IMG/VR virus record: IMGVR_UViG_3300026484_000157
Span: 62,270-126,269 of that record
Strand: one strand, 5' to 3'
Length of the DNA stretch: 64,000 bases
From: a virus
Shown: piece after piece, positions 12,101 to 49,436 of the stretch
Layout: the number at the start of each line of letters is the position of its first letter
Position numbering within the stretch: the first letter of the stretch is position 1
Position numbers and translations under genes: made by a program
Notes under the pieces: model-generated
Database searches by the model: none
What the model saw: the letters and a program-made list of their open reading frames with translations, nothing else
What the model was told of the DNA's origin: nothing

Positions 12101-12167
12101 TAGTATTAAAACTTTTGAAATTCAATTTTATAGGAATATAAGAATTAAACAAATCAAGGATAACAAC
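12101..12167 (+). promoter_or_regulatory. Conserved phage promoter plus leader (TAGTATTAAAA-N17-TATAGG...AAGGATAACAAC)
   Basis: Related copies near 3203, 4779, 6805, 13161, 13681, 19445, 20396, 22951, 32124, 36877, 43365, 48433, 49373, 53492, 55938, 57699, 57758 and 61948, all with exact 17-nt spacing. Confidence 0.85.
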
Positions 12168-17115: not shown

Positions 17116-17136
17116 TAATCAAGAAGGATAACAACA

Positions 17137-19440: not shown

Positions 19441-19507
19441 TTTATAGTTAAAACTTCTAAATCCTGATTTTATAAGAACATAACAAATTAAAACTCAGGA
19501 TAACAAC

Positions 19508-20398: not shown

Positions 20399-20459
20399 TA
20401 TTAAAATTTTTGAAATTCAATTTTATAAGAACATAAGATAAAAATCAAAGGATAACAAC

Positions 20460-20852
20460 ATGAAATTAACAAAAAAACAATCGGACATTTTAAACAACTG
20501 GCTTCAAATAACTCAGGGTAGTTGTGGTGCAGATACATGGGACAAGCTTGGACAAGATAATCACAGCTTCGCAGACATAAATGATATAACTGAAGTTTCA
20601 AAAGATTACAGTAAACCTCAAATTATTGGAATTGTAGCATCATTGGTAGACAAAGGTCTTATAATGCTAGATCCAGATGCTACAAAAAACAATAAGAGCA
20701 AAGTATGGTGGATTTGTGATGAAACGATTGATATGATGATCAAACTGGAATCTGATGAGTCATCAGAACCAAAGAAAGAAACCGCAGAACCAGAATTTGA
20801 TGACTTCACTGATGATGGCTCATTAGAAACACTAATGGAATTGGTGGGTTAA
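20460..20852 (+). CDS. Hypothetical protein, possible winged-helix
   Basis: Conserved promoter and leader; QIIGIVASLVDKGLI. Confidence 0.55.
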   Translation: MKLTKKQSDILNNWLQITQGSCGADTWDKLGQDNHSFADINDITEVSKDYSKPQIIGIVASLVDKGLIMLDPDATKNNKSKVWWICDETIDMMIKLESDESSEPKKETAEPEFDDFTDDGSLETLMELVG

Positions 20853-20854
20853 TT

Positions 20855-21214
20855 ATGGCAAAGCAAATATTAAGAAAAGAATTATACAAAATCGTTTCTG
20901 CTGAAATAACAGAGGAACGATTAGCAAAGTTACCAGTTTGGGCACAGCGAGAAATTATGGCACTATCATCAAAAATTGAGAGACTTAACAATATGTTAGA
21001 TAATACAGATCCAACTGATTTATGGATAGACCCACCAGTAGGAGATAAGAAAAGATATTTAGATCCACATTCGAGATTAGTGTTCAGAACAGATCATAAA
21101 ACTGAAATATCAATCCATATGCCACATGGATCAAACAGAGTAAGAATCAGTAAGGATACATGTGGAGAAATTTTCATGATTCCAACTGGTGGTAATACTA
21201 TGGAGGTATTATAA
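20855..21214 (+). CDS. Hypothetical phage protein
   Basis: KLPVWAQREI motif; contiguous ORF. Confidence 0.55.
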   Translation: MAKQILRKELYKIVSAEITEERLAKLPVWAQREIMALSSKIERLNNMLDNTDPTDLWIDPPVGDKKRYLDPHSRLVFRTDHKTEISIHMPHGSNRVRISKDTCGEIFMIPTGGNTMEVL

Positions 21215-21927
21215 TGAGCAGATATCATTATAAAGATTTTGATGATTACATTAAATCAAATAAGAACCTATTTAAGGATCATAAATTAACTGCCACAAAA
21301 CTGAATAACACCGATCTAATTATTGATTGGTCTAAGCCATCTAGTGGAGAAGGATCAATGAGGATAACTTATATAGGTGGATATCTATCTATCAATGGTG
21401 ACTATGGATCTGCTTCATTCACATGGCATAATCCAAATAACACAATAGAATGGATGTCTAAGTGTAACATTGGATATTTTATGTCAAAATGCATATCATC
21501 AGAGAAACAGGAAAATGGAATTCATATGATGGAATGGGATCAAGATGAATGCATTGAGACTGTAGAATCATATATATCTGAAAAAGATGACTGCGATATA
21601 AAACCAAATGACGATAGCTGGAAAATGCATACAGAATCGGCTTGTGATTGGAATTCATATTTATCAAAATATGGAGAGAATGAATTCGGAGACTCATGGT
21701 ATGAGACATATCCAAATGCAGGTCTAGTTCTCCATTCAAGAGTATACATTTGGATACATGCATTACAAGAAATTTCGAAACATCTAGATGAAGATGCTGA
21801 ATATATATCTGCACAAGTAAAATTCAATGATTTGGATTCGGAACTTCTTAAACAGGATGGCGAATTGGATTGGACTATTAATTCAAATAACGGATATATA
21901 AAACTTAAAATAATAAAAGAGGACTAA
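21214..21927 (+). CDS. Hypothetical phage protein
   Basis: 237-aa ORF with GGAGG SD. Confidence 0.6.
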   Translation: MSRYHYKDFDDYIKSNKNLFKDHKLTATKLNNTDLIIDWSKPSSGEGSMRITYIGGYLSINGDYGSASFTWHNPNNTIEWMSKCNIGYFMSKCISSEKQENGIHMMEWDQDECIETVESYISEKDDCDIKPNDDSWKMHTESACDWNSYLSKYGENEFGDSWYETYPNAGLVLHSRVYIWIHALQEISKHLDEDAEYISAQVKFNDLDSELLKQDGELDWTINSNNGYIKLKIIKED

Positions 21928-21930
21928 ATT

Positions 21931-22503
21931 ATGAGTACCTTATTCAGAGCAAAACATATAAATAGCAATCAGATGGTTATTGGCACAGGCACTACTAATT
22001 TCTTGAATATGAAACAATACGATCAATTCAAAGGATCGGGCAGAACATGGTTGTGGTCGAACTATTCATGGATTGAAGTCGATCCAGATACATTATCTGT
22101 TCACCATGAAGGTATGGATGATTCTAATGGCAAACCAATTTTTGCATCACTAGATAAAGTGAACCATATAGGTGGAGATATACTAATCCCAATAAAGCAG
22201 ACAACTTCCAATGAGCCAATTGTCTGCTTTATTGAAAACGGTCTTTGGAATTATACTGATAGCGACTGGATGATTTCAGGAATACATGGAATCAACAATA
22301 CTCCATGTGAATATTGTAACATTGTTGAATATACAGGCAAACTGTTTGAATTATCAAGTGTAATAGACGGTAAGGATCAAAACATAGAAGTCTGTCTGCA
22401 ATCTAATGTTGATGAAGAAACAGTTGGATTATCAATCGATGGGACACACTATGAAGCATTTATTGATATTAACTTCTGCCCAAAATGTGGTAAGTCATTA
22501 TGA
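21931..22503 (+). CDS. YopX-like protein with C-terminal Zn finger
   Basis: LFRAK...EVDPDTLS...D.NGK.IF..GDI; INFCPKCGK. Confidence 0.55.
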   Translation: MSTLFRAKHINSNQMVIGTGTTNFLNMKQYDQFKGSGRTWLWSNYSWIEVDPDTLSVHHEGMDDSNGKPIFASLDKVNHIGGDILIPIKQTTSNEPIVCFIENGLWNYTDSDWMISGIHGINNTPCEYCNIVEYTGKLFELSSVIDGKDQNIEVCLQSNVDEETVGLSIDGTHYEAFIDINFCPKCGKSL

Positions 22504-22953
22504 TTGAAGTTGGGACTCTAGTAACATCACCGATTTATGGTGATGGCGAGGTCATAAGGTTGTATTCGGACTGCATGATATCGATCAAATTTGTTGAAAA
22601 CACATTACCAATAATGTGTAGTTCTAGATCTATGGAGACAATACATAGTGGTAAAAAATCAAAATTCAAGGTAGTAAATAATGTTAATAAAAGCTAAATT
22701 CAATAGAATAAGATTTAAAATCGAAGAAAGAGAACGATTAGAGTTAGAAGCAGATAGAATAACTGCTGAATATAATAATTCTATCACAGAAATCACATCA
22801 CAAATTGCAGATCTGGATATAGATCACAAATATGAAGTCGCATATAATATTGGAGTTTATGCTAAAGAAAACTACAAAAAGTGTGAAAATATGACGATCT
22901 ATGAAGCATATAAATATGTGGATATGCTAATGGAAAAATATGAAGATGAATAG
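22500..22953 (+). CDS. Two small hypothetical proteins (22500-22697, 22681-22953)
   Basis: Overlapping coupled ORFs. Confidence 0.5.
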
Positions 22954-23015
22954 GTATTAAAACTTCGGCTACCTAATTTTATACAAACATAAGATAAAAA
23001 TTAAAGGATAACAAC

Positions 23016-23363
23016 ATGAGAAAATCAATCGCTTCAAACAACGAGATTAAAGAGCTAATAGCAGAAATGGAAAAGCTACAAGCACAAAAATCGGTTATTG
23101 AAAAACAATATAATTCAATCAAAAAGACTATTACTGACAGACTAATCGCTCCAGATTTAAATGATAAAGACACTGTTTATGAATATGAATTAGGTCTTGA
23201 CTCAAATAAAATTTTAAGATACGAATTAGTACCAACAACTAGATTTGATACTAAAAGATTTACTGCAGAATGCCCTGAGCTTAAAGCAAAATATACAAAT
23301 GCAACAGTAAATAAAGTCTTCAAAATTATTGAGGAGAAATCAGAAGAGAAGGTGGAAAAGTAA
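23016..23363 (+). CDS. Hypothetical phage protein
   Basis: Conserved promoter and leader; coiled coil then RFDTKRF...PEL. Confidence 0.6.
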   Translation: MRKSIASNNEIKELIAEMEKLQAQKSVIEKQYNSIKKTITDRLIAPDLNDKDTVYEYELGLDSNKILRYELVPTTRFDTKRFTAECPELKAKYTNATVNKVFKIIEEKSEEKVEK

Positions 23364-25268
23364 TGGCACAGTCAACAACTGAAATAAAACAAGCCATTGC
23401 AGATCAAGTGAATTATAAATTGCCATTAACTGTCAGCAATCAATTTCTTGCAGTTAATGTAAAGGATTTTCTTGGTAAAATACTACAGGAAGACTCTTAC
23501 ATTCTGCCTTATGGTTATTTGGAAGAATATTCTGAATACAACTACATAAGATTGGACGATCTGATTGCAAAACTTATTAAAGATGACAACACTAGATTCA
23601 TCAATACTGCAATCAAACTGGCAATAGCAGTTAATTCTGAGGAATTTAACATTCATTTTAATGAGTTTAATTTATTAGCAAAATTCTGCTATAATAGAAT
23701 TGATCAAGACAAATTTGTACAACTTATGATGCCAAGATATAATGATCGCAACTATATCATAACAAAATGGGATGAATTCAGAAATGACCCATTAAGATTC
23801 ATTATTAGTCGATCTGAGAGAGAATTATTTGATGAGATTTCGAGAGAGATTATAATGACAAAATATAAAGGATAATTAATGCCAAAAATTTACAAGCAGT
23901 TACAAGATATTAAAATTGGCAATCACTTAGAAACATTGGATTTTGATGGTCACACACCAGAGTTATATATAATATTAGATTTGAAAAAAGATCAAGAATC
24001 AATTAAATTAGATGACAAAAGAGTATTATATACTGATAATAAAAACATAATTGTTGTTGCTAAAAGAATGGCAAATCAATCAATATTGGTGGAAACTGTC
24101 ATTAATTCAATCAATATTGAGGTATACAAAAATCAAATTATTAGCCATTACTTACCAGAGGGAGAAGAATAATGGCTAATATGAGCTACTGCAGATTTGA
24201 AAATACCACTGCAGATTTTGAAGATTGTTATGATGCACTAACTGAGGCAGGATCGATTGAGAATTATATTAAGACTAAAGATCCATCAACTGAAGAGATA
24301 ATGGCAATTCAAGAATTGATAAACCTTGCTAAGGCTATGGTATCAAATTTTGGAAACATTGAAGGATCAAATAATGGCTAAGCACTTACAACTAGCAAAG
24401 AATATTGCTCTCGGCAAATTATTCTCTGAGCTTCCAACGGACTTAGTGGAACCAAAATGCACACCAGAAGAACAATGGGAATTATTCGAAAAGGTATACA
24501 GACATGAATCAATAAAAGATGATAGATTTGTCTTGATTGATCAGTTGTCTTATTTGTCATATAGAACCATATGGGAATTAGCAGATGACATTGTTAAAGC
24601 CCAAATTGAATTTCTTGAAATTTGCATTGACACTGGTGTAACAGACTAAAAACACTGTTAAAAACAAACATATAATGCTATGTAAGGATTAGTAATGAAT
24701 AAGAAGACCCACAGAGTGTCATCTCTCTTCTCGGCAGAGAAATGGCTACTGGAAAATGGATTTAATGAGAAAGAAGTAATAATAAATCAAGATTCTCTAA
24801 CAGTTCATCCAAATGAGAATGATACAGTAATGGTATCAATAGGAGAAACTATGCATCTAGAAGGTAAATTCAAAGATGGAACATATGATTTCTGGGTTAC
24901 TGACAATGACTAGAATAAAATGTAATCTATGTAATGTGAACAAAGTCTACAGAAACGATGAAAATAGTGAAATACTGCACTTTACAGGGTATATTAACAA
25001 TGAATGGCATCACCATTGGCACATTTGTATTGAATGTTCGGATTTCAACAACTTAAATATATCAAGAAGATTAGATAAAAAACTGTTGAATATAAAGATT
25101 GGTCAGCAGTTCATGAAGAGTAATTCGTGTAACATACCCTATGAAGTTTCAAAAATCAATGGGAACACAATTTATATGATACAATTCAATGGATCGGCAA
25201 CTGATGTTATAACAATATCAAGAAAGATCTCAAAAGAAGATTTTCATAAACAATTTACTAAGGTATAA
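23363..25268 (+). CDS. Cluster of small hypothetical genes (23363-23875, 23879-24172, 24172-24381, 24374-24649, 24695-24913, 24906-25268)
   Basis: Tightly packed ORFs, most with SD sequences. Confidence 0.5.
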
Positions 25269-25270
25269 AA

Positions 25271-26254
25271 ATGACAAATACACTACATGACCCAAGATTA
25301 ACCGATGAACAGAAAAAATTATACGATGAATTTTCTGTTAATGAAATGTTACCAGTAGAAGAACATGAAACTCCAATTGGTAACATACTGTTCAAAAGAA
25401 TAGATAAATATAAACCAGTTGATAACATCCATGTTGGTGGTGGAAAAACTTTACAGTCTGTAACATTGATGATAAATAACATCAATCAAATCAGAGACCA
25501 TTTTGATTCAAATGTTTCAACAGCAGCAGCACTGACATCACCTCAACATCATTTGGTATCTGGTGTTGCCAAGAAACTAGGATTGAATTCATTTGTGGGT
25601 ATACAAGGGACTCCTGAGAGACTACCAATCATTTTAGAAAAATACTCAATGATAAAAGCAGCACAATATTATGATGCGACGATATTACCAGTTACTAAAG
25701 CAGCATACCAAGTTGTAATAGAATCTAGAATGAATAAACAATTAGCAAAAGATGGTATAAAGCATTTCTTTATCAAATTCGGTATTAACATTGATAAAGA
25801 CAGGGATGCAATTCTAGGATCAATAGCTAACCAAGTTGAAAACATTCCTGATGAATTAGATCACCTAATCATCCCAAGTGGATCATGTCTATCTGCAGCA
25901 GCAATTATTAATGGCATTCATAAATTTAAAAAGAAAATCAAAAATATTCATGTAATTCAAATAGCAGGTGGCTCTCATGCCAAAAATATAGATGTAAATA
26001 TGCCAGTATTGGCTCACTATAAATATCAATTCCACTTAATAACTGATATCCCATATAAAGAACATAGATATTATACTATTGGTAAAGATGATCAAGAATT
26101 TCAAATCGATCCAGTATATGAGGGTAAGGCTTATGAATATCTTCTGAACAATCATAAAGAGATGGGAATAAAACCAGATGACAAGACACTATTTTGGGTT
26201 GTCGGATCGACTGTATCAACTAGAAAACACTTTGGTGATTCATTAGGATACTAA
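25271..26254 (+). CDS. PLP-dependent ACC deaminase / D-cysteine desulfhydrase-like enzyme
   Basis: FKRID...GGGK (PLP Lys), SPQ, IPSGSCLS, DPVYEGKA, LFWVVG. Confidence 0.78.
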   Translation: MTNTLHDPRLTDEQKKLYDEFSVNEMLPVEEHETPIGNILFKRIDKYKPVDNIHVGGGKTLQSVTLMINNINQIRDHFDSNVSTAAALTSPQHHLVSGVAKKLGLNSFVGIQGTPERLPIILEKYSMIKAAQYYDATILPVTKAAYQVVIESRMNKQLAKDGIKHFFIKFGINIDKDRDAILGSIANQVENIPDELDHLIIPSGSCLSAAAIINGIHKFKKKIKNIHVIQIAGGSHAKNIDVNMPVLAHYKYQFHLITDIPYKEHRYYTIGKDDQEFQIDPVYEGKAYEYLLNNHKEMGIKPDDKTLFWVVGSTVSTRKHFGDSLGY

Positions 26255-26390
26255 ATATAAATTGAGAAGAGGGAAAGATGCCAAAACAAAACATAAAACT
26301 AAGAGATAAATTATTGTTAATAATAGCTCTAGTCGGTGGAATTACTGATTTAATTTTGATAGTTAATGTTTGTCATCATTGGTAATTAGT

Positions 26391-26762
26391 ATGAAATTAG
26401 GAATCATTGGTAGTAGGAATATTACCAATTTCAAAACTTTTGAGCCATACATCACCAAAATTGTACAAGATGAGAACATAACAACTTTGGTATCTGGTGG
26501 TGCAACAGGTGTTGACAGTTTTGCTGAAAAATATTCAGTTAAACATCAACTCAAATTAATTCTATATAAACCAAACTGGCAAAAACATGGAATGAATGCA
26601 GGATTTATAAGAAACCATGACATAATTAAATCTTCTGATATTATATTGGCAATTTGGGATGGATCTTCAAAAGGCACAAAACACTCGATTAATTTAGCAA
26701 ACAACTATGGGAAGCCTATAAAGATTATAACAGTAAGGAGAAAAAATGGCAACAAAACATGA
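26391..26762 (+). CDS. SLOG/DprA-like (YspA-type) protein
   Basis: IIGSR, VSGGATGVD, AGFIRN, WDGSSKGT. Confidence 0.8.
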   Translation: MKLGIIGSRNITNFKTFEPYITKIVQDENITTLVSGGATGVDSFAEKYSVKHQLKLILYKPNWQKHGMNAGFIRNHDIIKSSDIILAIWDGSSKGTKHSINLANNYGKPIKIITVRRKNGNKT

Positions 26763-26825
26763 ATTCTGTGAGTTGGCAACATTCGAACAACTATTAACTA
26801 CAAAAGATATGAAAAGGATATAAAA

Positions 26826-27665
26826 ATGACGATCGAAGAGACTATGGCTATCATAGATGCTAATGGCATTTGTTATGATACAATAAATAGGAACCATTTA
26901 AAAATTGATACTGCCAATGGCACCATAAATTTCTACCCATCTTCAGGGACATTCCATTATAACAATGAAAAATCAATAGGTAAATCTGTTTACCAACTGA
27001 TGGAACATTTAGGAATAAACGAGCCTAGATCATTTGTTGCTTCATCTGATGAAGAGGAAGATGACACATTCGATTGGCTAGATGAAAATGTTCCATCTAT
27101 TGAGAAATCACCGATTGAAAATAAAACTATTAAGCCACCACCTCCACAGAAATCAAATAATAACATTCTGCGAAATATCTCAATGGCTGATAGTAGAAAT
27201 ATTATGAAGCTTAAATATAAGCGACTGGATAAAGATGCATTTCCACCAAGAAAAACCAGACTAACTGATGCAGGTGTAGATTTATATGCAGTAAAAGATG
27301 CAGTATGGCAACAACATGGATCTCAATGGTTCTGCATTGTTGAAACAGGAATTGCTCTTGAAATTCCCCCATATCATTATCTAGCAACTGCACCTAGATC
27401 ATCTGCATTATTTGGTGATGATCATGTGTCAACATTCCATTCTGTATTAGATACTGGATATAAGGGAGAGATCACATTTTTGTGTAATTCATTTAGTGAA
27501 GAAATGCCACAGATTATAAAAAGAGGTGATAGAATGTCGCAGGTGGTTTTAGTTCCTATCCCAATGATAGATACTTCTTTTGAAGAGGTTGAAGAATTAC
27601 CAAGCCATTCAGATCGTGATAAATTAGGATTCGGAAGTTCAGGAGACACACCATGGGAAAAATAA
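26826..27665 (+). CDS. dut: Trimeric dUTPase-fold enzyme with N-terminal extra domain
   Basis: DAGVDL, PRSS, LDTGYKGEI, GDRMSQ, R...GFGSSG. Confidence 0.82.
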   Translation: MTIEETMAIIDANGICYDTINRNHLKIDTANGTINFYPSSGTFHYNNEKSIGKSVYQLMEHLGINEPRSFVASSDEEEDDTFDWLDENVPSIEKSPIENKTIKPPPPQKSNNNILRNISMADSRNIMKLKYKRLDKDAFPPRKTRLTDAGVDLYAVKDAVWQQHGSQWFCIVETGIALEIPPYHYLATAPRSSALFGDDHVSTFHSVLDTGYKGEITFLCNSFSEEMPQIIKRGDRMSQVVLVPIPMIDTSFEEVEELPSHSDRDKLGFGSSGDTPWEK

Positions 27666-28396
27666 AAACAATATATCTAGTAACTGGCAAAAAGAGATCA
27701 GGTAAAGATTACTTATCGGATTTAATGCTAGATGAACTGAATAACTCTGTAACTGCAAAGTTTTCAGGACTGATGAAGTCAATTACTCAATCATTATTTT
27801 CTATTGATTCTGATCAACTAGAAGAATATAAAAATGATGAAACAATACTTATTGGTGATGTGACTAAAGTTAGAATGGACTCTCAAAGTTTGGCAACTCA
27901 TTTAGTTGAGTTATATGACATTTTCAATAATTCATTCATATTTGGAGAACATGACAAGATAAACATTAATTATGATATTGTCTATCAAGTAGTGAAAAAA
28001 GTGATGAAAGATACGAAAGTTGAAGATATTACTTTCAGAAAATGGCTTCAAATATTTGGGACAGATATTACATATCCATTATTTGGTGATGATATCTGGG
28101 CTAGATACACATCTTATGAAATCAACCAGCTACTTAAAAAACATGACTCTGTTATAGTTTCTGATTTCAGATTTCCTCATGAATATGAAGTAGTTAATTC
28201 AATGGCGAATAATCTCTATAAACTAGTAACCATTAAGGTAATAGATCACAATCTTGAAGATTCATCTGATTCTCATATTAGTGAGAATGCCTTGAGTGGG
28301 TTTCACTTCGATAAACTGTTAGATAATTCAGTAAAAAACGGAGAAGAACCTATAAGAAAGTGGATAAATGAAATCATAATAAAAGGAGTCGATTAA
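27653..28396 (+). CDS. Deoxynucleoside monophosphate kinase
   Basis: GKKRSGKD, RKWLQIFGTD, VSDFRFPHE, HISE. Confidence 0.85.
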   Translation: MGKIKTIYLVTGKKRSGKDYLSDLMLDELNNSVTAKFSGLMKSITQSLFSIDSDQLEEYKNDETILIGDVTKVRMDSQSLATHLVELYDIFNNSFIFGEHDKININYDIVYQVVKKVMKDTKVEDITFRKWLQIFGTDITYPLFGDDIWARYTSYEINQLLKKHDSVIVSDFRFPHEYEVVNSMANNLYKLVTIKVIDHNLEDSSDSHISENALSGFHFDKLLDNSVKNGEEPIRKWINEIIIKGVD

Positions 28397-28505
28397 TGAA
28401 AATATCAGCTTAAACAGGCATCACAATCAAAGAAACAAGCAAGCATTAAGTTGGATTTGCGATATATCGCAACCGTAAAAGCAAATAAAAAACAAGGAAA
28501 ATAAA

Positions 28506-29216
28506 ATGGCATATCAAGCTGAAGAACTAGAATTAGACGACATCGAGATCAAAGAAGAGGATCTTTCAAAACTAAAGTTAAAATTTGATCAAGACAAACA
28601 AAAAGTTAGAATTGGTTTCCCACTATTAGGAAAAACAGGTAAAGTAGCAATTAAGAGAATCAGATATTTTCCATTCTCTGAAAAATACAGAAAGCAATTT
28701 CTTGTAACAGGTGATGAGGAATTTGATAAAGAAATTGAAAAGTATATGGGTGCACCAAAAGACAAATATGTTACTGCAGTGGTACATTACCAAACTGACA
28801 TGAATGGAAAACTTATTAAGAATGGTGGTCTTAGTTACATAATCAGACCTTTTGTAATTCCACAAAATAAACTGCCAGTTTTACAAGCAAGTTCAGCTGA
28901 GTTTCCATTGAATGAGCATGATTACATTCTTACTTGTACAAATAAACAGTTCCAAAATTTTGATCTTAGCCCAACTAAAGATGCAATTTGGTTAAAAAAT
29001 GACAAGATTAAATCTCAAATCATGTCAGAAATTCAAGAAATGAATGAGGCAGGTCTTCATCAAGCAGTTGCGATCGAAGCATCTAAAGAGAAGATCAAAG
29101 AGTGGTTAGAAATTGGCAAAGAACCAGATCCTGAGCCAGAAGATGTTCCAGAACCATCAGGTGGATCAATCGATCTAGATGATGACGATGATATATCGGA
29201 TCTTCTAGAAGATTAA
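28506..29216 (+). CDS. Putative single-stranded DNA-binding protein
   Basis: Beta-rich core with strongly acidic C-terminal tail; replication context. Confidence 0.55.
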   Translation: MAYQAEELELDDIEIKEEDLSKLKLKFDQDKQKVRIGFPLLGKTGKVAIKRIRYFPFSEKYRKQFLVTGDEEFDKEIEKYMGAPKDKYVTAVVHYQTDMNGKLIKNGGLSYIIRPFVIPQNKLPVLQASSAEFPLNEHDYILTCTNKQFQNFDLSPTKDAIWLKNDKIKSQIMSEIQEMNEAGLHQAVAIEASKEKIKEWLEIGKEPDPEPEDVPEPSGGSIDLDDDDDISDLLED

Positions 29217-29224
29217 CTCCAAAC

Positions 29225-29250
29225 AAGTCGGCATTTGCCGACTTAGTTTT
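29225..29250 (+). terminator. Rho-independent terminator-like hairpin
   Basis: AAGTCGGCA/TGCCGACTT stem followed by AGTTTT. Confidence 0.6.
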
Positions 29251-29380
29251 ATTAGAGTTGGACATCGGATAGAGCAAAACAATCTACAATAGTGAAGTTG
29301 TTATCCTTAGTAGAACTTGCAAAAATCGTATAAGACATAAAATCCTATGACTCTATCAGGTGTTCAACTCTAATAAAACT
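29245..29380 (+). ncRNA. Candidate structured sRNA, 30-bp closing stem with anti-RBS loop
   Basis: 29245-29274 pairs with 29351-29380 (29 of 30 positions, two G-U); internal GTTGTTATCCTT. Confidence 0.55.
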
Positions 29381-29407
29381 CAAATTTCAACAAAGGATTC
29401 GGAAACC

Positions 29408-30820
29408 ATGGCAAAGAAAAATAAAGAAAAACCATTTGATTATGAAACATACAGGGATCTACTTACTAGAGTTCCAACTCATGAAGAAGCTAAAGCAATT
29501 CATAAAACATTAGCACCTAAAATCAGATCATTAGCACCAGAAGAATATTATAATATGGATTCTGAAAAATTATGGGAATATGCAGTTGCTTATTCTTGGG
29601 ATGCACATATAAGCCCTTTTAATTATGGGGATAATACTCCAAATATCAAAGATCTAAATAACCTACTTAAAGTTAATACAAGAGCAAATATCAATGCTCA
29701 ACTTGAAATAGGAAGAGGTACAAATGGTCTTAAATTCCTTAATTATTATGTTAAGGAATATTTATACAACACAGAAATTGGTGGCAGAAGTAAAACTATG
29801 ATTGAAGCTAAAGATGATATTTCTTTTGTTTATAAAGTTGTAATCAAATTAATGTACCACTCTTGTACTAATATAACAAGAAACAACATATATTCATTTT
29901 TCAAAATTGCATCTATCCAAGTTCCATCAAACTTCAAACCTGCAGTTGCTTCAGTACTATGGGATAAGCTTGGAATTCAAAAGTTAGATAAAGATGCTAC
30001 CCAATTAAATATTCTATGCCCATCAGAGGGTTGGGTATCAAGATGTTTATCGTCATATAAAATTGCACATGATAATCCACATATAAAGATAAGATATCAT
30101 ACAATAGATCCTAATCCACAAGTAAAAGTTGCATATAATACAATGACTAAATTTCTTAAAAATTTTGGTGGTTTCAATCGAGTTAAAAATTGGGAGACTA
30201 CCTACCATTTCGGTGGATCTCAAGACATAGAATCAATCCCAACCGACTTAATAGGTAGTATGGATGTAGTTGGAACATCTCCACCTTATTTTGGAATAAC
30301 TGAGTTATACGGCTTTAACATTGCATTAATAGGGGACAATGAATTTGATCCAACTAAAGGATTCCAAACTGATCATGGCAATATGATGGTTGAAGATCTA
30401 CCAGAGTTCCTAGTAACAAACCCAACTGCAGACTCGGTTACTCAATTTGATAAAGAATTTAAAATAATAAAAACTAATGATCTTGAGAAAGATTTCACAT
30501 CAGCAAACCCAAATTGTGTTTATTTTTGGGAGGCATCACAAGCATCTAACATTGACTCATACACTGGTTGGCAAGAAGAATATTTAAGACCGACAATTAC
30601 AAATGCACATATAGCACTTAAAGAAAATGGATATTTATGGATAAATGTTGCAAATTCTAAGGGTATGCCTACATTTGAGGACGATGTAACCAAAATTGTT
30701 GAAGAATGTGGATTTGAACATGTCGAAACATATAAAATGCTAATATCAAGATCACCTGCTCTTAAAGACAAAACTAAAAATAAACCATTTGAACCAATTT
30801 TCATATTTAAGAAGAGATAA
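29408..30820 (+). CDS. Amino-DNA methyltransferase (N4-C/N6-A class)
   Basis: SNFKPAVA, PSEGW..R SAM-binding-like segment, TSPPYF..E.Y, L..NGYL.INVAN, EPIFIF. Confidence 0.78.
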   Translation: MAKKNKEKPFDYETYRDLLTRVPTHEEAKAIHKTLAPKIRSLAPEEYYNMDSEKLWEYAVAYSWDAHISPFNYGDNTPNIKDLNNLLKVNTRANINAQLEIGRGTNGLKFLNYYVKEYLYNTEIGGRSKTMIEAKDDISFVYKVVIKLMYHSCTNITRNNIYSFFKIASIQVPSNFKPAVASVLWDKLGIQKLDKDATQLNILCPSEGWVSRCLSSYKIAHDNPHIKIRYHTIDPNPQVKVAYNTMTKFLKNFGGFNRVKNWETTYHFGGSQDIESIPTDLIGSMDVVGTSPPYFGITELYGFNIALIGDNEFDPTKGFQTDHGNMMVEDLPEFLVTNPTADSVTQFDKEFKIIKTNDLEKDFTSANPNCVYFWEASQASNIDSYTGWQEEYLRPTITNAHIALKENGYLWINVANSKGMPTFEDDVTKIVEECGFEHVETYKMLISRSPALKDKTKNKPFEPIFIFKKR

Positions 30821-30863
30821 CCTCTTCTTATAAATTCCATATAAACATAAAAAGGATAACAAC

Positions 30864-31487
30864 ATGGCAGTAGTACTTAATCAATTACTATCTTTAAGAA
30901 AAGAACTGATGGAGATAGTGGTAAAACCAGCAGAAACATTTACAACATTTGAACAAGATATTTCTGAAATATTCAAAGAAATTAAGGGATTAGTATCAGA
31001 TTGGTCTAAATCAGATTACCCATCATATAAAGTTGCAAAATCGTTTCTTGAAAAAGACGAGGATGGTGGTTATACAATTTCTAAAGGAGAATCTCTTTGG
31101 GTAATACACACTGCAATTTACAACATCCAAGAGATCAACACTAAAATATCAATAGATTTATATGATAAAGCAGTGGAAATCCATTCTCTTGCAAAGTCAT
31201 TACACAATTCATTAAAAGTTGAATTACAAAACAATGAGAAATTATTAATGCTAATTTCTACAAAGACCGATCAAGCTAGAGAAGTAGACTTCATTATGAA
31301 TAATACTAATCTACATTGGTCAACTATAGACATGAGATTCAAACAGATTAAAAACCTTGTAAATTATATGGAAGATCAAAGTAGTGCTTTAAATAGATTA
31401 GATTCTGCACTTAGATTGAAGCAATCAATTGATTCTACGGCAGCATTTGAAGCAATATCTACGAGTAATACGATTGAAATTGAATAA
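30864..31487 (+). CDS. Hypothetical helical protein
   Basis: AAGGATAACAAC leader. Confidence 0.6.
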   Translation: MAVVLNQLLSLRKELMEIVVKPAETFTTFEQDISEIFKEIKGLVSDWSKSDYPSYKVAKSFLEKDEDGGYTISKGESLWVIHTAIYNIQEINTKISIDLYDKAVEIHSLAKSLHNSLKVELQNNEKLLMLISTKTDQAREVDFIMNNTNLHWSTIDMRFKQIKNLVNYMEDQSSALNRLDSALRLKQSIDSTAAFEAISTSNTIEIE

Positions 31488-31499
31488 AAGGAATATATT

Positions 31500-31706
31500 A
31501 TGAATGATGACAAAATAGAACAACCAGATACAGGATTTATTGAAGCATATGGTCAAGTTTCTATGGATGACAATACACAATACCCTAGAGGTGAGAGACC
31601 AGAATTTATTCATGTTGATGAAGTTCCAACTACAAGAGTGAACCTTACTGAACTGACTCGAACTAAGAACTATACAGTGGAAGATGATGATGGTTACATT
31701 GACTAA
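31500..31706 (+). CDS. Small acidic hypothetical protein
   Basis: SD-led 68-aa ORF. Confidence 0.5.
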   Translation: MNDDKIEQPDTGFIEAYGQVSMDDNTQYPRGERPEFIHVDEVPTTRVNLTELTRTKNYTVEDDDGYID

Positions 31707-32178
31707 GAAGTCAGTACTCAGTTATGAATGTGAGATAAAAAGGTTAAATGAGTTAGTGAGAGTTTATAGATATGATTTTCTCACTAACCTTAAGATGAGG
31801 AGAGATTATTTTAATGATCTCAAAGAAAACAATAATAAATGGTTAACTATCATTGATATTAATGATCTTCATACATTGAATCGGCATCCTGATGGTGGAT
31901 ATGAAGCAGGTGATCGATTAATAATCGACACAGTAAATGCTCTGAAAGAAATATCTGAAACAGCAAATTTTAACAAAGATAATATCTACAGAATTGGTGG
32001 TGATGAATTTGCTATAATCAGTGACCACAAAATAGAACAGTATCTAACATCAATAGATAGAATAACTTTTGCTTCTGAAAAAATAATCCATAATACAGAC
32101 TACTTTAATTTAATAGATATGAAAATTAAAACTAAAAAGCGACTCCTTTATAAAAATGCAGAGAAAAGATCAAATTAA
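31684..32178 (+). CDS. GGDEF-domain protein (diguanylate cyclase-like)
   Basis: DFLTNL, IDINDLH..N....GYEAGD, YRIGGDEF. Confidence 0.8.
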   Translation: MMMVTLTKKSVLSYECEIKRLNELVRVYRYDFLTNLKMRRDYFNDLKENNNKWLTIIDINDLHTLNRHPDGGYEAGDRLIIDTVNALKEISETANFNKDNIYRIGGDEFAIISDHKIEQYLTSIDRITFASEKIIHNTDYFNLIDMKIKTKKRLLYKNAEKRSN

Positions 32179-32188
32179 AGGATAACAA

Positions 32189-32545
32189 ATGGTTTCACAC
32201 CTACTCTCAAATTTAGAGAATGAAGAAATAATTGCTAGAGTTCAAAAGATAATAGATGCAATATCTTTCAAAACAATCACATCATCAATGAATGGAGTTA
32301 ATCCATTAAGTGGTAGTTATGAATCTGCAAGTGCATCTGTAACTATCGATGCTGACATTTCAGATATCAATCATGACGATATAATGATTGCTAATGTCTG
32401 TCTGTCTTATTTAAACAGAAGAGCAGTTTTATTATCGTGGTATCAAACTGGACTAATTAAGTCTACTCAATATAAGGAACAATCTACACTTATCTTGGAT
32501 AGATCAACCAAATTATTAAATCAAATGGCAAAATCAAATGGTTAA
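32189..32545 (+). CDS. Hypothetical protein
   Basis: Promoter and AAGGATAACAAATG leader. Confidence 0.55.
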   Translation: MVSHLLSNLENEEIIARVQKIIDAISFKTITSSMNGVNPLSGSYESASASVTIDADISDINHDDIMIANVCLSYLNRRAVLLSWYQTGLIKSTQYKEQSTLILDRSTKLLNQMAKSNG

Positions 32546-33875
32546 TTATGAATTAGACCTTATTGGTCGGTTTGTTTCTGAAATGAAAGCCACAACAAAG
32601 GCAAAAGAAAAAGCACTTATTTTGGAACATTATCTACTTAATTACACTCATACTATTAGTAGAATTTACAAGATTGCTTTTGATAGTAATTATCAAACAT
32701 TCATAACTAGTGTTCCAAAAGCTAAAGAATTCTCTTATGATAAAGATGCATATGATTATTTTGTTGAACTTACTAATAGAATAATCAATGACAACGAACG
32801 AATCAAGCGAGATGAATGGGCACAATTGGTATTCCTTTTGCAACAGTCTGTTTCTGAAAAAATTCAAGCTATTCTTGGTGACATAATGATCAAAAAATTA
32901 ACTGTCGGTGCAGGTGTATCAAGTTATAATAAAATTGCTAAAAGGCTAGGATTGGATCTATTATTTGAGCATAAAGAGATGAAGGTTTCAAATTTGTCTG
33001 ATGCAGAAATAAACTGGGAATCTGGGGTTATGGTAGGCACAAAATATGATGGCTCAAATGGATCATATAAAAAAGGTATAATCTATAGCAGAAACGGAAG
33101 TCCAATTTTTACCAAACCAATGGAAGATGCATTAGAACCATTAATAGATAGTGGATATGTTATCTGTGGAGAACTTTATAATAAAGAAAGTAGACAATCT
33201 GCTAATGGTATTATAAATTCGTGTATAAAAATGGGATATGACACTAAATTACCAGTCGAGCAATTATCATTTGCAGTATTCGATGTAGTTCCAATTGAAG
33301 ATTATGAAAATGGACATTGTGCAATTCCCTATGAGGATAGAATTGCTAAGGCTGATGAGCTTATTGCTGAAATAAATCATCCAAAGATTCATGTAGTCGA
33401 ACAAACGATAGTCCATTCTATGTCTGAAGCATACAAGATGTATAGAGACATTAGATCAGACATCACTAAAATTGGCTATGAAGAAGGTATAATCATAAAT
33501 AACAGAGATGCAATTTATGAAGCCAAAAGATCTAAGTATCGTGCAAGAATTAAGGACAAACATACTGCAGACTTATATGTGAGAGGATGGAAACAACATA
33601 GAACTAATCCATCAATGGTTGGAAGTCTTCTTGTTGAAACTTCTGATAAAAGAATATCAGTTTGGGTTGGCTCAGGTCTAAAAGATTCACATATGATAGA
33701 TTTCTTTGAGAGAAGAGATAATCTAGATGGAATCATTGTTGAAATTGAATACAATCACATAATAAAAGGTAATAATGAGAGTGAATTCACTTTTTATTTA
33801 CCAGTCTTTAAGAGGGAACGAATAGATAAGTCTGATGTTAACTCATTCGATAATTTAGATGGAAAAATATTATAG
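32538..33875 (+). CDS. ATP-dependent DNA ligase
   Basis: KYDG, CGEL, FAVFD, EGIII, KRS, VGSG, LPVF..ER.DK. Confidence 0.92.
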   Translation: MVNYELDLIGRFVSEMKATTKAKEKALILEHYLLNYTHTISRIYKIAFDSNYQTFITSVPKAKEFSYDKDAYDYFVELTNRIINDNERIKRDEWAQLVFLLQQSVSEKIQAILGDIMIKKLTVGAGVSSYNKIAKRLGLDLLFEHKEMKVSNLSDAEINWESGVMVGTKYDGSNGSYKKGIIYSRNGSPIFTKPMEDALEPLIDSGYVICGELYNKESRQSANGIINSCIKMGYDTKLPVEQLSFAVFDVVPIEDYENGHCAIPYEDRIAKADELIAEINHPKIHVVEQTIVHSMSEAYKMYRDIRSDITKIGYEEGIIINNRDAIYEAKRSKYRARIKDKHTADLYVRGWKQHRTNPSMVGSLLVETSDKRISVWVGSGLKDSHMIDFFERRDNLDGIIVEIEYNHIIKGNNESEFTFYLPVFKRERIDKSDVNSFDNLDGKIL

Positions 33876-33885
33876 TGTTTTAATT

Positions 33886-33941
33886 TAAGGAGGATGTCGA
33901 AAGACATCCGAGTCCTTAGGTAGCACTTCCGATGCTACCTA
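33886..33941 (+). other. Tandem GC-rich hairpins (terminator or structured RNA)
   Basis: TAAGGA-GGATGTC-GAAA-GACATCC-..TCCTTA and TAGGTAGCA/TGCTACCTA. Confidence 0.55.
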
Positions 33942-33967
33942 TACAAACTACATAAGGAACGGATAAA

Positions 33968-34705
33968 ATGAAAATCAAAAATAAAAAATACCTAAGTAAC
34001 TGGAAGTGGAATACACTCAACGATATTATTGGTGATATCATGACTGATATCAATAGTGGAGAAGTGTTATCCTATGAGAGTTCAACTCCCAAATATATGG
34101 AATCACTAACAGAGAAATACCTCAACGATATTATTGAATTAAACGAAATGGAAATTCAATTTATCAATGACTATTTAATTTGGAAATCTGAAACAAAATA
34201 CAACAAGTTTCATTCATTTATTGGCAAGTCGGAATCAAAATTTGAATTTGTAAGCAGTAAATGTGACCAACTAATAAGATCAATAAAAGAAGGAATTGCA
34301 GAAGGTGTACCATCTGCCCAATTATATCCTTCAATTGTTCTTGCAAAACAAACTTTTCTTCTTCCAAAAGAGATATATAAGCTATTCTCGGCTTATATGA
34401 AGGTTGCACTGTTCTTAGATGAAAACAGAAAGCCTAAGGATCTTAAAGAGACTTTGGATACTGCAGCGAATTATTTAACCGACAATTACGATATTGAAGA
34501 ATTAATAATAGTCGTATCTGCTGATTATATTCCAGATGGTGGAATATCAGTATGCATCGAAAATGTCAATAATGGAGACTCAATCATAAAACATTTAAGA
34601 TCTGAGCTTGTGCATTGGGAATACAAAAATGACCTAAACCCAAACCATGATAACAATACAGGTGATGAAATTCCAATATTGTTATCCAAAGTTGAGGAGG
34701 ACTAA
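33968..34705 (+). CDS. Hypothetical protein
   Basis: 245-aa ORF. Confidence 0.55.
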   Translation: MKIKNKKYLSNWKWNTLNDIIGDIMTDINSGEVLSYESSTPKYMESLTEKYLNDIIELNEMEIQFINDYLIWKSETKYNKFHSFIGKSESKFEFVSSKCDQLIRSIKEGIAEGVPSAQLYPSIVLAKQTFLLPKEIYKLFSAYMKVALFLDENRKPKDLKETLDTAANYLTDNYDIEELIIVVSADYIPDGGISVCIENVNNGDSIIKHLRSELVHWEYKNDLNPNHDNNTGDEIPILLSKVEED

Positions 34706-34706
34706 C

Positions 34707-35249
34707 ATGAGTAAGGCAAAAGGGTCAGAATTCGAAAGAAAAATAGCAGGTATAATGAATAAAGCATTTATAGAACACACTGGTTTAGATAAGGCATTTA
34801 TAAGAAACATCCATTCAGGTGCATGGTATGGTGGTAAAAATGCACATAGAGCTGAGGGGGTAGGAGATAAGGATCTAAACACTGGAGATATAACTACTCC
34901 ATTGGATTTTATCTATACAATAGAATGTAAACATTATAAATCACCCCCAGCATTCAAGGGTTTCATTGATGGTAAAGTGAGTCAATGGGATACATGGATT
35001 GATCAAACAGAACAGGATTCTGCAACTTCAGGTAGATCATCAATGTTAATCATAAAGTACAATTTGGTTTCTGAAATAGCAATGATAAGAAAAGATGATT
35101 CTGCTCTTCTTAAAGACAAGAAACTGAATCCAATTCAGCCATTATTTTTGTTTGAGTCTAAAAATCATGGTACTTGGTATGCATACAATTTTAACAGATT
35201 AATTGCTGAGACACATATATCTAGTTGGTTTAATATTAATTTAGACTAA
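34707..35249 (+). CDS. Holliday junction resolvase (PD-(D/E)XK)
   Basis: MSKAKGSEFER, SGA, GDI, IECK. Confidence 0.82.
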   Translation: MSKAKGSEFERKIAGIMNKAFIEHTGLDKAFIRNIHSGAWYGGKNAHRAEGVGDKDLNTGDITTPLDFIYTIECKHYKSPPAFKGFIDGKVSQWDTWIDQTEQDSATSGRSSMLIIKYNLVSEIAMIRKDDSALLKDKKLNPIQPLFLFESKNHGTWYAYNFNRLIAETHISSWFNINLD

Positions 35250-35296
35250 TCACTCCCCTACAAGGGAATCAAGCCAATAAAAATAAAGGACTTAAT

Positions 35297-36475
35297 ATGG
35301 GAATAAATGAACTAGACAATGTCATGAAGGACATTCAAAAAACTTACAAAAAGAAGAATGATACAATAATCTACGATCCAGATAGAGAGAAGATTCCACT
35401 ATCATCAGGATCTGCAGTTATTGATTCACAACACAATGGTGGTCTATGTTATTTGGGCAGAATCACACAGCTTATGAGTTTAGAATCTGGTGGTAAAACA
35501 ACATTAGCCTTACAAACGGCTATATTAGCATGTAAGAATTATCCTGATAAGGGTGTAGTCTTCTTTGACATGGAACAACATATGGATTATACTTATCTTG
35601 AGATGTTATCAAGAAAATACGGATTCGATTCTGTTCCTAGCAATTTATACATTTTACAGCCAATGAATGCTGAAGAACTAGAAGATGTATGGCTCAAATT
35701 CATGGCTAAAAATGGTGATAAAATTGTATTAGCCATTATTGATTCAGTAGCAGCAACTAAACCAAAATCAATGTTAGAAAAAATTCATGGAGAATCAAGT
35801 CAAAAATCTCAACATGCAATGTTTTGGAACGATTTTATACCAAAAGTCAACAATGATGCTTCAAAATTCCAATTAGCAGTTTTATTAGTAAATCAGCTTA
35901 GAGCAGCACCATCTTTATCAAATATGGATAAGTTTAAAACTGGTGGACAGGTAGGACTAGGTGCAGGTGCATCGAATTTTGATACTGATATGACTCCAAC
36001 TGGTGGTAATGCACTTAGATATTACATTTCATGTTCATACATGTTATCTTGGTCAGGAAGAGTAAAAGAACAATTAGAAAACGATCAAACTGGTGAGATC
36101 GAAGATGTTGAGGTTTCAAATAAATATACAATCAGAAATGTTAAGAATAAAGTTGCAAGACCTTATTCAAAATCTAAATACATAATTAGATTTGGTGATG
36201 GTACTGATGATGCTCCAATCATTCTAGAAAGAATGAAAGAAATTGGCAGAATAACTAATCAAGGATCATTCTTATCTTATCATGCCAGAAATTCTGATTT
36301 AGACTTCAGAGTCAATGGTAAAGTAAAATTTAACGAAAAATTCATGATGCCAGATATATTGGCTGATGCAACAATTCAATATATAGATTCATATAAATCA
36401 GATTTTGAAATGCCAGAACTGGATGATGACGATAATGATGATATGGACGGTTTATTAGAAGAAGTAGAAGTTTAA
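35297..36475 (+). CDS. recA: RecA-like recombinase
   Basis: ESGGKTT, FFDME, IIDSVAA, VNQLR, PTGGNALRYY, VKNKVARPY. Confidence 0.92.
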   Translation: MGINELDNVMKDIQKTYKKKNDTIIYDPDREKIPLSSGSAVIDSQHNGGLCYLGRITQLMSLESGGKTTLALQTAILACKNYPDKGVVFFDMEQHMDYTYLEMLSRKYGFDSVPSNLYILQPMNAEELEDVWLKFMAKNGDKIVLAIIDSVAATKPKSMLEKIHGESSQKSQHAMFWNDFIPKVNNDASKFQLAVLLVNQLRAAPSLSNMDKFKTGGQVGLGAGASNFDTDMTPTGGNALRYYISCSYMLSWSGRVKEQLENDQTGEIEDVEVSNKYTIRNVKNKVARPYSKSKYIIRFGDGTDDAPIILERMKEIGRITNQGSFLSYHARNSDLDFRVNGKVKFNEKFMMPDILADATIQYIDSYKSDFEMPELDDDDNDDMDGLLEEVEV

Positions 36476-36498
36476 ACTTCTTCTAAAGGACTCAGAAA

Positions 36499-36879
36499 AT
36501 GTCAATACTAAATCAAGAAACATGTGAATACAATACAGACCTGATAGATGATATTATGCTATCAGTATTAGATGGTGCTGAAATTACCATTCCAATATAT
36601 AGAAGAATTATTGAGTTTCAAATATCTGAGTTTACAAAGAATTCGGATGAAGATGATCAATCGGAAGATCAGGCAATAATAATATTCAAAACAAATGACA
36701 TTATTAAAAATGATATAACCCCAGATATGGAACATTTTGTATCTGGTTATATTTATAGATCAATAGTGGAGATACTTAAAAATTCCATTATTATTGATGA
36801 GAATAGTATTCAATTCTCTGTTTCTCTTGACCATTTGGCTGACCAATATGAAGTAACAATCTACATTTCAGAAAGATAA
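36499..36879 (+). CDS. Hypothetical protein
   Basis: SD-led ORF. Confidence 0.5.
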   Translation: MSILNQETCEYNTDLIDDIMLSVLDGAEITIPIYRRIIEFQISEFTKNSDEDDQSEDQAIIIFKTNDIIKNDITPDMEHFVSGYIYRSIVEILKNSIIIDENSIQFSVSLDHLADQYEVTIYISER

Positions 36880-36991
36880 TATTAAATCTACACTTCCTTA
36901 TTTTTATAAAACAACATATCAAAATAAGGAAGAACAAAATGCCTGATGAAATACCAACTACTCCAAAATCAATATTAAATGGAGATTATTA

Positions 36992-38269
36992 ATGACAAAT
37001 TTTACATTAAAGAACTTTCAATCCCATAAAAACACCACTATAACTATTGATGGATTTACAATTATAAAAGGGTCATCTAATGGTGGGAAATCTGCAATAA
37101 GAAGAGCAATATCATGTCTATTATTTAATGAATATGATAAATCTTATATAAGAAACTCGGCAACATCACTAGAATTGGAACTAGATGATGGAACAAACAT
37201 CTTCAAACTTTCAAAGCCTAAAAATTCATACCTAGTGAATGGAAAGGAATTTCCAAAAATTGGTAAAGATGTGCCTGAGAAATTCAAACAGCTCGGCATT
37301 GACTATTTTGTTGCAGATGGCACGAAACATAATCTAATATCTAGTTCACAACTAGATCCTTTATTCATGCTAACATATTCTGATCAAGATAATACAAGAA
37401 TTCTAAACAAGATATTCTCTGTTGAAAGATACGAATTGGCATCTAAGGATGTGAAGAAAGATAAAGATAATCTAAGAAAAGAAAACAAGATATTTAGAGA
37501 ACAACTATCTGAAGAAAAAGGTCATAGAAACTTACTATCTGATTCTCTTGACCTTACTACAAGAGCAATAGAAGTAATGGATAAACTGGAGTCATTAGAT
37601 AATCACAATCTTGCTCTGTCTAAATATAATTCATTGTATTACGAATCAAGAAAAATAAAAGATTCAATCACTGAATTGGAGGAACTAGTTAGTAGATACA
37701 CTCTTCTTAAGAACAGCATAAGTAACATAGATAAGCATCTAGGAGATGAACTACAATTATCCAATGTTCAAGATCAATCTTCCAAATTAGTGAGTTTATT
37801 TGGATATTATGATAAGTTAATGAACATTCAGGTTATTTCTTCATTTTTGAAACAATTAGATAATATTGACATTGCCAAAAGCCATTTAACTGATATTTCC
37901 ACTAAGATTAATAAAGGCATGATGTCAATAGACAAAATCGATACAATAGTAAGACAGAGTGATTCTGCAAGAGATAAGATTAACAAAATCACAGAATTCA
38001 CTGCTCTTATTGATAAACTTACCACTAACAATTTAGAACATAACAAAACATTGATGGCTCTGAACGATCTGTCATCAAAAAGTGATCAATTCACTCAACA
38101 TAATGATAACATTATGGTTATTGCAAGAACTATTGACATTATAGCAATTTATGATAAGAAAAAGGATCAATTAAGTAGAATTCCTTTAAAGATTAAAGAG
38201 CTAGAAGAACAACTTCCAGAAACATGTCCGACATGTGGACAAGATATAAAGGATAATCAATGTCATTAA
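36992..38269 (+). CDS. sbcC: SbcC/Rad50 N-terminal half
   Basis: LKNFQSH, GSSNGGKS Walker A, Q-loop, coiled coil, zinc hook CPTCGQ at the C-terminus. Confidence 0.85.
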   Translation: MTNFTLKNFQSHKNTTITIDGFTIIKGSSNGGKSAIRRAISCLLFNEYDKSYIRNSATSLELELDDGTNIFKLSKPKNSYLVNGKEFPKIGKDVPEKFKQLGIDYFVADGTKHNLISSSQLDPLFMLTYSDQDNTRILNKIFSVERYELASKDVKKDKDNLRKENKIFREQLSEEKGHRNLLSDSLDLTTRAIEVMDKLESLDNHNLALSKYNSLYYESRKIKDSITELEELVSRYTLLKNSISNIDKHLGDELQLSNVQDQSSKLVSLFGYYDKLMNIQVISSFLKQLDNIDIAKSHLTDISTKINKGMMSIDKIDTIVRQSDSARDKINKITEFTALIDKLTTNNLEHNKTLMALNDLSSKSDQFTQHNDNIMVIARTIDIIAIYDKKKDQLSRIPLKIKELEEQLPETCPTCGQDIKDNQCH

Positions 38270-43891: not shown

Positions 43892-44023
43892 AAAACACTT
43901 GCTCTGCTCAAATATGAATGCTATGTCAATGGCATTCATATTTTTCAATTAAAAAGAAACCAACATTTTGTTTATTGAGAAGATAGATATCATTTTACTA
44001 AACAAAATTATAAGGAATATGAG

Positions 44024-49379: not shown

Positions 49380-49436
49380 AACTTTTATCATTTGATTTTA
49401 TAAGAACATAACAAATCAAAAATCAAGGATAACAAC

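Follow-up and report, generated by a model that had tools for sequence, protein, structure and literature searches.

A long intercistronic stem in a large phage genome encloses the exact complement of a shared ribosome-binding leader and may give rise to a c4-like antisense RNA

To our knowledge, the known phage antisense RNAs (c4, sar, OOP, and DicF) mostly come from temperate phages, and each acts on a single gene or operon. The c4 RNA is processed out of a longer transcript. According to PMC12197685, the c4 RNA of phages P1 and P7 is encoded upstream of the genes under its control and on their strand, and a sequence that it exposes pairs with the ribosome-binding region of a phage mRNA and blocks translation. 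DicF, from the dicB operon of the Qin prophage, is a small antisense RNA without a promoter of its own (PMC12197685). For T7 early mRNA, PMC3867540 gives five RNase III signals in a precursor of ~7000 nt and an ideal substrate of 22 bp. Here we describe a phage element that recalls each of these systems in part. Our favored reading, drawn from sequence analysis and given a probability of roughly 0.4, is that the element yields an mRNA-derived, stem-closed, c4-like RNA whose loop pairs with a leader shared by about a dozen phage genes and may damp their translation.

The window, meaning the whole 64,000-nt stretch analyzed here, is the second half of a virus record of 126,269 bp (31.5% G+C, terminal overlap of ~131 bp) that CheckV rates as complete. 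All 98 of the 98 open reading frames (ORFs) of at least 90 aa lie on the plus strand, when ORFs inside a longer plus-strand ORF are left out, and the G/C and A/T skews are monotonic along the sequence. A replication origin as the role of the element was rejected, since the skew plot has no inflection suggesting one. Five runs hold the stretch, all of them metagenomes, none recorded as RNA, and two of them labelled hydrothermal vent. The phage is large and uncultured and appears to be lytic/virulent-like, and no immunity role is evident for the element, which is laid out between two genes as follows:

28506-29216, + strand: upstream gene, 236 aa, the last before the terminator (ORF list)
29225-29244, + strand: intrinsic terminator hairpin, 8 pairs (5 G-C), 4-nt loop (terminator search)
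29245-29274, + strand: left arm of the 30-position stem (pair reading, fold, inverted-repeat search)
29275-29350, + strand: A-rich interior loop, 76 nt, without significant structure of its own (z +0.40, base-pair probabilities)
29297-29308, + strand: anti-leader GTTGTTATCCTT, exact complement of the shared ribosome-binding-site (RBS) leader AAGGATAACAAC
29329-29345, + strand: 17-nt segment missing from one variant contig (record 23, run X5)
29351-29380, + strand: right arm of the 30-position stem (pair reading, fold, inverted-repeat search)
29393-29397, + strand: Shine-Dalgarno (SD) sequence AAGGA of the downstream gene, part of the second leader class AAGGAYTCGGAA
29408-30820, + strand: downstream gene, 470 aa, DNA-methyltransferase-like, without a promoter of its own

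The element is like c4 in that its exposed 12 nt are complementary to the RBS region of phage leaders, nine in this case. It differs from c4 in having no match to the Rfam C4 covariance model, in presenting one 12-nt site in a large open loop on a 30-bp stem where c4 has two short loops, and in its putative targets, which are 9 to 15 dispersed genes and not one operon. It likewise shares with DicF the lack of its own promoter; DicF, however, targets host ftsZ, is 53 nt long, and has a terminator-like 3' end, and the element has no Rfam match. The likeness to T7 lies in the long intercistronic hairpins of a one-directional polycistronic phage transcript. Processing signals in T7 are compact hairpins with an internal loop, whereas the element is a 30-bp stem around a 76-nt loop with an anti-leader, and RNase III cleavage is putative here.

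The two arms, 30 nt each, 90% complementary, and 76 nt apart, rank first among 20 inverted repeats in the window. Read base by base, they form 27 Watson-Crick pairs, 2 G-U pairs (G-U at 29261/29364 and U-G at 29265/29360), and 1 G/A mismatch (29267/29358), leaving 29 of 30 positions paired. This count upholds the claim of the sequence-only reading, an initial inspection of the letters, that a 30-bp stem exists here with G-U pairs valid only on the plus strand: both become A/C mismatches on the minus strand. The preference is for the strand that carries the genes, but just 2 transitions underlie it (chance 1 in 4). The 136-nt plus-strand RNA folds at -44.5 kcal/mol (z -7.33), with none of 200 shuffles equally stable, and the minus strand is nearly equal (-42.4 kcal/mol, z -6.72). 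The stem persists in a 204-nt context fold (z -7.25), and the gap that holds it, 29217-29407, is the most stable per nucleotide among 26 intergenic gaps (-0.309 kcal/mol/nt). A long near-perfect duplex is the type of structure that is cut by host RNase III and that shields RNA ends from exonucleases. With 29 of 30 positions paired, the 2 G-U pairs included, the stem has the ~two turns (22 bp or more) of near-regular double-stranded RNA expected of an RNase III substrate, a threshold taken from PMC3867540. No RNase III gene was found in the phage genome. Elsewhere in the window, at 43892-44023 (+), a second terminator has an AT-rich hairpin behind it, with arms of 21 nt and a loop of 2 nt, right before the SD of the next gene; that hairpin sits between TTAAAA and TATAAGG, which are thereby too distant for a promoter cassette of the kind described below.

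Folded alone, the 76-nt interior reaches only -5.3 kcal/mol (z +0.40), a value equalled or bettered by 119 of 200 shuffles. Since it is no more stable than shuffled sequence, we regard it as an open loop; the inner hairpin that had been proposed on first inspection, tipped by TCCT, finds no support. In the minimum-free-energy structure, weak pairing joins GUUGUU to AACAAU, AUC stays unpaired at a junction, and CUU lies in a 4-bp stem; in the ensemble, GUUGUU is again weakly paired, and the AUC of the anti-leader is unpaired with a probability of 0.73 to 0.91. Because the interior is an open loop, the anti-leader is cheap to expose (~3 kcal/mol): the calculated opening cost of the site is 3.0 kcal/mol, compared with -14.8 kcal/mol for the 12-bp duplex. 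No small ORF with an SD and a start codon was read in the loop, and a minus-strand ORF (29277-29095) begins 19 nt past the anti-leader motif, inside the arm.

The motif at 29297-29308 is the perfect complement that the sequence-only reading took it to be: GTTGTTATCCTT matches AAGGATAACAAC over 12 nt exactly and is the sole antisense copy of this leader in the 126-kb genome. Sense copies of AAGGATAACAAC number eight on the plus strand of the window and nine in the genome, always 0 to 1 nt before an ATG, and with up to one mismatch allowed the window holds 15 matches versus 0.76 expected. The leader sites listed earlier were all recovered in the window (8/8 exact and 5/5 near matches). The exact copies are as follows:

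12156-12167, + strand: exact leader before ATG 12168
17124-17135, + strand: exact leader before ATG 17137 (UvrD-type helicase)
20448-20459, + strand: exact leader before ATG 20460
23004-23015, + strand: exact leader before ATG 23016, first gene of the operon ending at the terminator
30852-30863, + strand: exact leader before ATG 30864, the gene next after the methyltransferase-like gene, without its own promoter cassette
49425-49436, + strand: exact leader before ATG 49437
53546-53557, + strand: exact leader before ATG 53558
57811-57822, + strand: exact leader before ATG 57823

The copy at 30852, 1.5 kb downstream, is the exact leader nearest to the loop. The anti-leader spans exactly the invariant core of the leader (SD plus spacer) and ends before the invariant ATG. 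Under a second-order Markov model, 0.0034 antisense copies of the 12-mer are expected by chance per genome on the plus strand. Among 44 12-mers with at least 4 copies, the leader 12-mer alone has an antisense copy; ~1.3 copies would be expected for the 44 in total, mostly from AT-only words. Since a 231-nt query gives about a dozen unrelated 12- to 13-mer matches in the genome, the significance lies in which 12-mer matches and not in the match itself. Only two loci in the genome carry 10 nt or more of sequence antisense to the leader, the loop and a promoter spacer at 55949.

The potential for pairing between the loop and phage translation-initiation regions was gauged in two ways. Twenty of 174 initiation regions have a perfect complement of at least 9 nt to the loop, whereas across 200 shuffled loops the mean was 2.6 and the highest count 14; the complement is 12 nt long in nine regions and 11 nt in four. 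Duplex energies calculated without an accessibility constraint, on the other hand, place 91 of the 174 genes at -12 kcal/mol or lower, and only 11 of the top 22 genes by this ranking are leader-class. Unconstrained duplex energies fail to discriminate targets in this AT-rich genome.

Genes with the exact leader are mostly the first cistron behind a promoter plus leader cassette, TTAAAA-N17-TATAAG-AACATAAGA...AAGGATAACAACATG, which occurs in 18 copies, all on the plus strand and with strict spacing (window 3206-61953 plus genome position 15178). In at least four of these, the promoter spacer is the antisense of the SD region that it precedes. The antisense stretch measures 16 nt at 55941, 15 nt at genome position 15178, 12 nt at 36882, and 10 nt at 6810, and spacer/leader complementarity is 7.8 nt for cognate versus 6.2 nt for non-cognate pairs (permutation p 0.0002). 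The phage demonstrably uses upstream anti-SD complementarity. Since such a spacer is antisense to the gene's own SD, the RBS would be masked in read-through transcripts but not in promoter-initiated ones. The string TTATCCTT has three copies on the plus strand, one in the loop and two in promoter spacers, where it begins 3 nt past the -35 element. The spacer arms at 55941 and genome position 15178 resemble the anti-leader: they share its TTATCCTT core, which is antisense to the SD, and likewise lie on the plus strand, upstream of leaders. They differ in lying 45 nt upstream of their own leader, in 10- to 16-nt cis hairpins, whereas the loop copy has no leader nearby; furthermore, the cis arms cover gene-specific upstream bases, and the loop copy covers the class-invariant core only.

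The downstream gene of the element carries a different leader. This second class, AAGGA(C/T)TCGGAA, lies 1 to 6 nt before six start codons, that of the gene at 29408 among them (window 4823, 7943, and 29393; genome 7009, 17255, and 29268), and a seventh copy lies inside an ORF at genome position 47226. Several other intergenic features were seen in the window. At 57742-57789 (+), a hairpin (23-nt arms, 87% complementary) is located between tandem cassettes at 57704 and 57763, and its loop contains the -35 element of the second promoter. Two intergenic gaps, at 33876 and 43163 (+), open with the same TGTTTTAATTT right after the stop codon. A tRNA-like element at 61518-61595 (+) scores 32.8 bits on the Rfam tRNA model in a local search (gathering score 29). 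Its acceptor stem of 7 bp, its T-loop, which matches the consensus, and its encoded CCA are tRNA-like, but the "anticodon" loop has only 4 nt and the D region is oversized; it was called neither by ARAGORN nor by the whole-window Rfam scan and may be a processing signal or a decayed tRNA.

How an RNA could be made from the element depends on its flanks. Three terminator-like sites were found on the plus strand in 19000-38000, of which 29225-29244 has the most G-C pairs (5 versus 3 and 3) and, in our judgment, the sole good U-tract; its U-rich tail is formed by the first bases of the left arm. The interval 29217-29407 contains no sigma-70-like or phage-type promoter on either strand. The best score there of a position weight matrix (PWM) for the phage cassette is -18.4 (rank 2161), versus 17 to 47 bits for the 18 cassettes, and no positive -10 block occurs in the loop at spacings of 15 to 19; a promoter inside the loop was rejected by these PWM scans. 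No terminator-like site was found after 29380, and no minus-strand promoter adjoins the right arm, the nearest sigma-70-like matches being 170 to 270 nt away. The two marks of an independent small RNA (sRNA) gene, a promoter upstream and a terminator downstream, are both lacking: since the terminator abuts the left arm with no promoter in between, and no terminator follows the stem, a stand-alone sRNA gene is unsupported. Of the trans-acting anti-RBS RNA envisaged by the sequence-only reading, the exact complement, the accessible site, and the excess of complementary initiation regions stand, while a discrete sRNA gene is unsupported. Because no promoter follows the terminator, plus-strand RNA over the element would arise only via read-through of the operon that starts at ~22957, and without a dedicated promoter or a terminator after the stem, the abundance of this RNA would depend on terminator leakage.

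The steps of our favored c4-like reading (read-through transcription, RNase III cleavage, RNA accumulation, and repression) are ones that we infer from features established directly at the locus, namely, the stem and its adjoining terminator, the lack of a promoter, the improbable complementarity, and the accessibility of the site. Transcription that reads through the terminator ending the upstream operon would give a plus-strand RNA over the element, and in such transcripts the two 30-nt arms would close the 76-nt open loop. The stem, as an RNase III or stability element, would separate the upstream and downstream messages, and cleavage or end protection might leave a stable stem-closed RNA of ~100 to 136 nt. 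Through its loop, this RNA could pair exactly over 12 nt with the leader core of nine genes and over 11 nt with four more, occluding the RBS; it would thus act in the manner of c4 and be generated in that of DicF (PMC12197685). The putative targets would mostly be first cistrons behind the phage's own promoter class.

The genes on either side were examined for what they might encode. A small hairpin and a long leader, rich in A and unstructured, lie upstream of the gene at 28506-29216. Its 236-aa product has an acidic C-terminal tail, DDDxDISDL, that is conserved in a 51%-identical homolog (P0018), and its look-alikes by language model (0.93 to 0.94) include a cluster auto-named T4 Gp32 ssDNA-binding-domain protein. 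The protein has no Pfam match even at E<=5, no PHROG match, and no PDB sequence match, and its AlphaFold model (pLDDT 36) is unusable; it is possibly a gp32-type ssDNA-binding protein, a likeness by language-model features only. On the other side, the alignment of the 470-aa protein places an SPPY motif in its C-terminal half, and weak homologs carry PF01555; there is no direct Pfam match, and the N-terminal half (~270 aa) is without known identity. One close homolog of this protein was found (P0002, 54% identity), and the ligase of the phage has a homolog at 55% identity (P0015). An atlas search with the 207-aa protein gave no usable match. At 30821-30863 (+), the methyltransferase-like gene has its stop codon overlapped by an 8-bp hairpin (AAGAAGAG/CTCTTCTT). 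Next come a -10-like CATATAAACATAAAA, for which there is no -35 element, and the exact leader of gene 30864.

Relatives of the locus were sought in several collections. No relative was found by blastn of 28000-31000 against GenBank phages, by tblastn of the 470-aa protein against phages, by searches of IMG/VR with the 470-aa protein and its alignment, the ligase, and the 236-aa protein and its alignment, or by a search of JGI metagenomes with the methyltransferase alignment. IMG/VR scans with the arm pattern and with the promoter plus leader pattern were empty. The 16-nt anti-leader pattern matched 21 IMG/VR loci, 0 of which share flanks or carry the leader set, and the promoter pattern matched 6 loci in JGI metagenomes, all unrelated AT-rich matches without the leader. 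In GTDB, 67 loci match the arm in a scan that required the exact 18-nt pattern, and the best 25 BLAST matches to the element are 16 to 22 nt long, none spanning it. Rfam gave no match at gathering score in the window and, at E<=10 over 29150-29450, six chance-level matches, none of them to C4 (RF01695) or to 6S. As tested, the element belongs to no described RNA family.

A single contig provides a variant of the locus. Recovered from run X5 of another study at a depth of 2.3, it spans 29282-29638 and so lacks the left arm. Its anti-leader and right arm are identical to those of the record, but 17 nt of the loop are deleted (29329-29345) and four substitutions occur farther downstream; the difference between 0 changes in 82 nt and 4 in ~258 nt is not significant. 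This one contig shows that the loop part with the -10-like TATAAGACATAAAATCC is dispensable or variable. Contigs of several runs leave the hairpin uncovered and are uninformative either way.

The alternative that survives best is that the element is a purely structural intercistronic hairpin, a stem for RNase III processing, insulation, or end protection, in which the 12-mer is a relic of a spacer arm or a product of chance and has no target. We consider this possible, if somewhat doubtful. It accords with the position between a terminator and a promoterless gene, with the second terminator-hairpin-gene arrangement at 43892-44023, and with a stem longer than the 22-bp ideal substrate in a phage transcript, the T7 early precursor having five such signals (PMC3867540). 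Because the other two TTATCCTT copies sit in promoter spacers close behind the -35 element, the anti-leader could be a non-functional relic; the loop also reads ATAGT..GTTATCCTT, like the spacer at 55941, contains a -10-like TATAAGACATAA, and is in part dispensable in the one variant. However, since the loop scores far below every real cassette, without a positive -10 block at any of the spacings scanned, the relic idea needs several rearrangements, and it leaves the exact coverage of the class-invariant core by the complement unexplained. Chance, for its part, would supply exact 12-mers at the expected number of only 0.0034.

A role at the level of DNA is improbable in our estimate, whether as protein-bound inverted sites looping 76 bp or as a remnant of recombination or of a miniature inverted-repeat transposable element (MITE). 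Such a role, or a strand-neutral one, is left some room by the near-equal folding of both strands and by the place of the element in front of a promoterless gene, and the arm centers, 106 bp apart, would be separated by ~10 helical turns. The size of the element and the length of its arms resemble those of miniature inverted-repeat elements, with the 30-nt arms as terminal inverted repeats. However, no direct repeat indicating a target-site duplication is visible at its ends, there is no second copy in the 126-kb genome, the best 25 GTDB BLAST matches are only 16 to 22 nt, no skew inflection is present, and 76 bp is short for an invertible segment.

We give very little weight to a 6S-like decoy, in which a stem-closed bubble with a single-stranded -10-like UAUAAGACAUAA would sequester the polymerase that reads the phage promoter class. 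Although the TATAAGACATAA of the loop is one deletion away from the -10/start block of the cassette, TATAAGAACATAA, the 6S-like alternative raised on first inspection found no Rfam match at gathering score or at E<=10, the element has no second (terminal) stem (interior z +0.40), and the 12-mer match ATAAGACATAAA is no better than chance (E 1.4). The -10 mimic is further weakened because the variant contig lacks exactly the 17-nt segment with the -10-like TATAAGACATAAAATCC. A minus-strand sponge, an RNA that would show the sense leader to a leader-binding protein or to ribosomes and end at a bidirectional terminator hairpin, is highly unlikely: the minus strand does present the large hairpin and then the same G+C-rich terminator hairpin, and the leader resembles the A(N)GGA protein-binding motif, but all genes and 18/18 promoter cassettes are on the plus strand, no minus-strand promoter adjoins the right arm, the G-U pairs become A/C mismatches, and neither a CsrA nor a RegA homolog was found in the phage, although the control of the RegA search gave no match anywhere.

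Returning to the stem-closed antisense RNA, we tentatively suggest that it could act as a "timer," a riboregulator cut from phage mRNA whose accumulation would shut the promoter class off in trans. Transcription continuing beyond the terminator that follows the SSB-like gene, itself abundantly transcribed in this scheme, would yield an RNase III-trimmed, duplex-protected RNA, and its open loop would titrate the invariant 12-nt leader of the first cistrons in nearly every operon of the class. One anti-RBS seed would then act regulon-wide, alongside the gene-specific cis anti-SD arms in the promoter spacers.

If the element is a processing hairpin only, it is an ordinary one. If it is functional as an antisense RNA, it would represent a new variant among those of phages, one that is regulon-wide, mRNA-derived, and stem-closed. 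Masking the leader of a whole promoter class would, if true, be a new way to time gene expression, and it would account for a leader whose conservation extends past the Shine-Dalgarno sequence.
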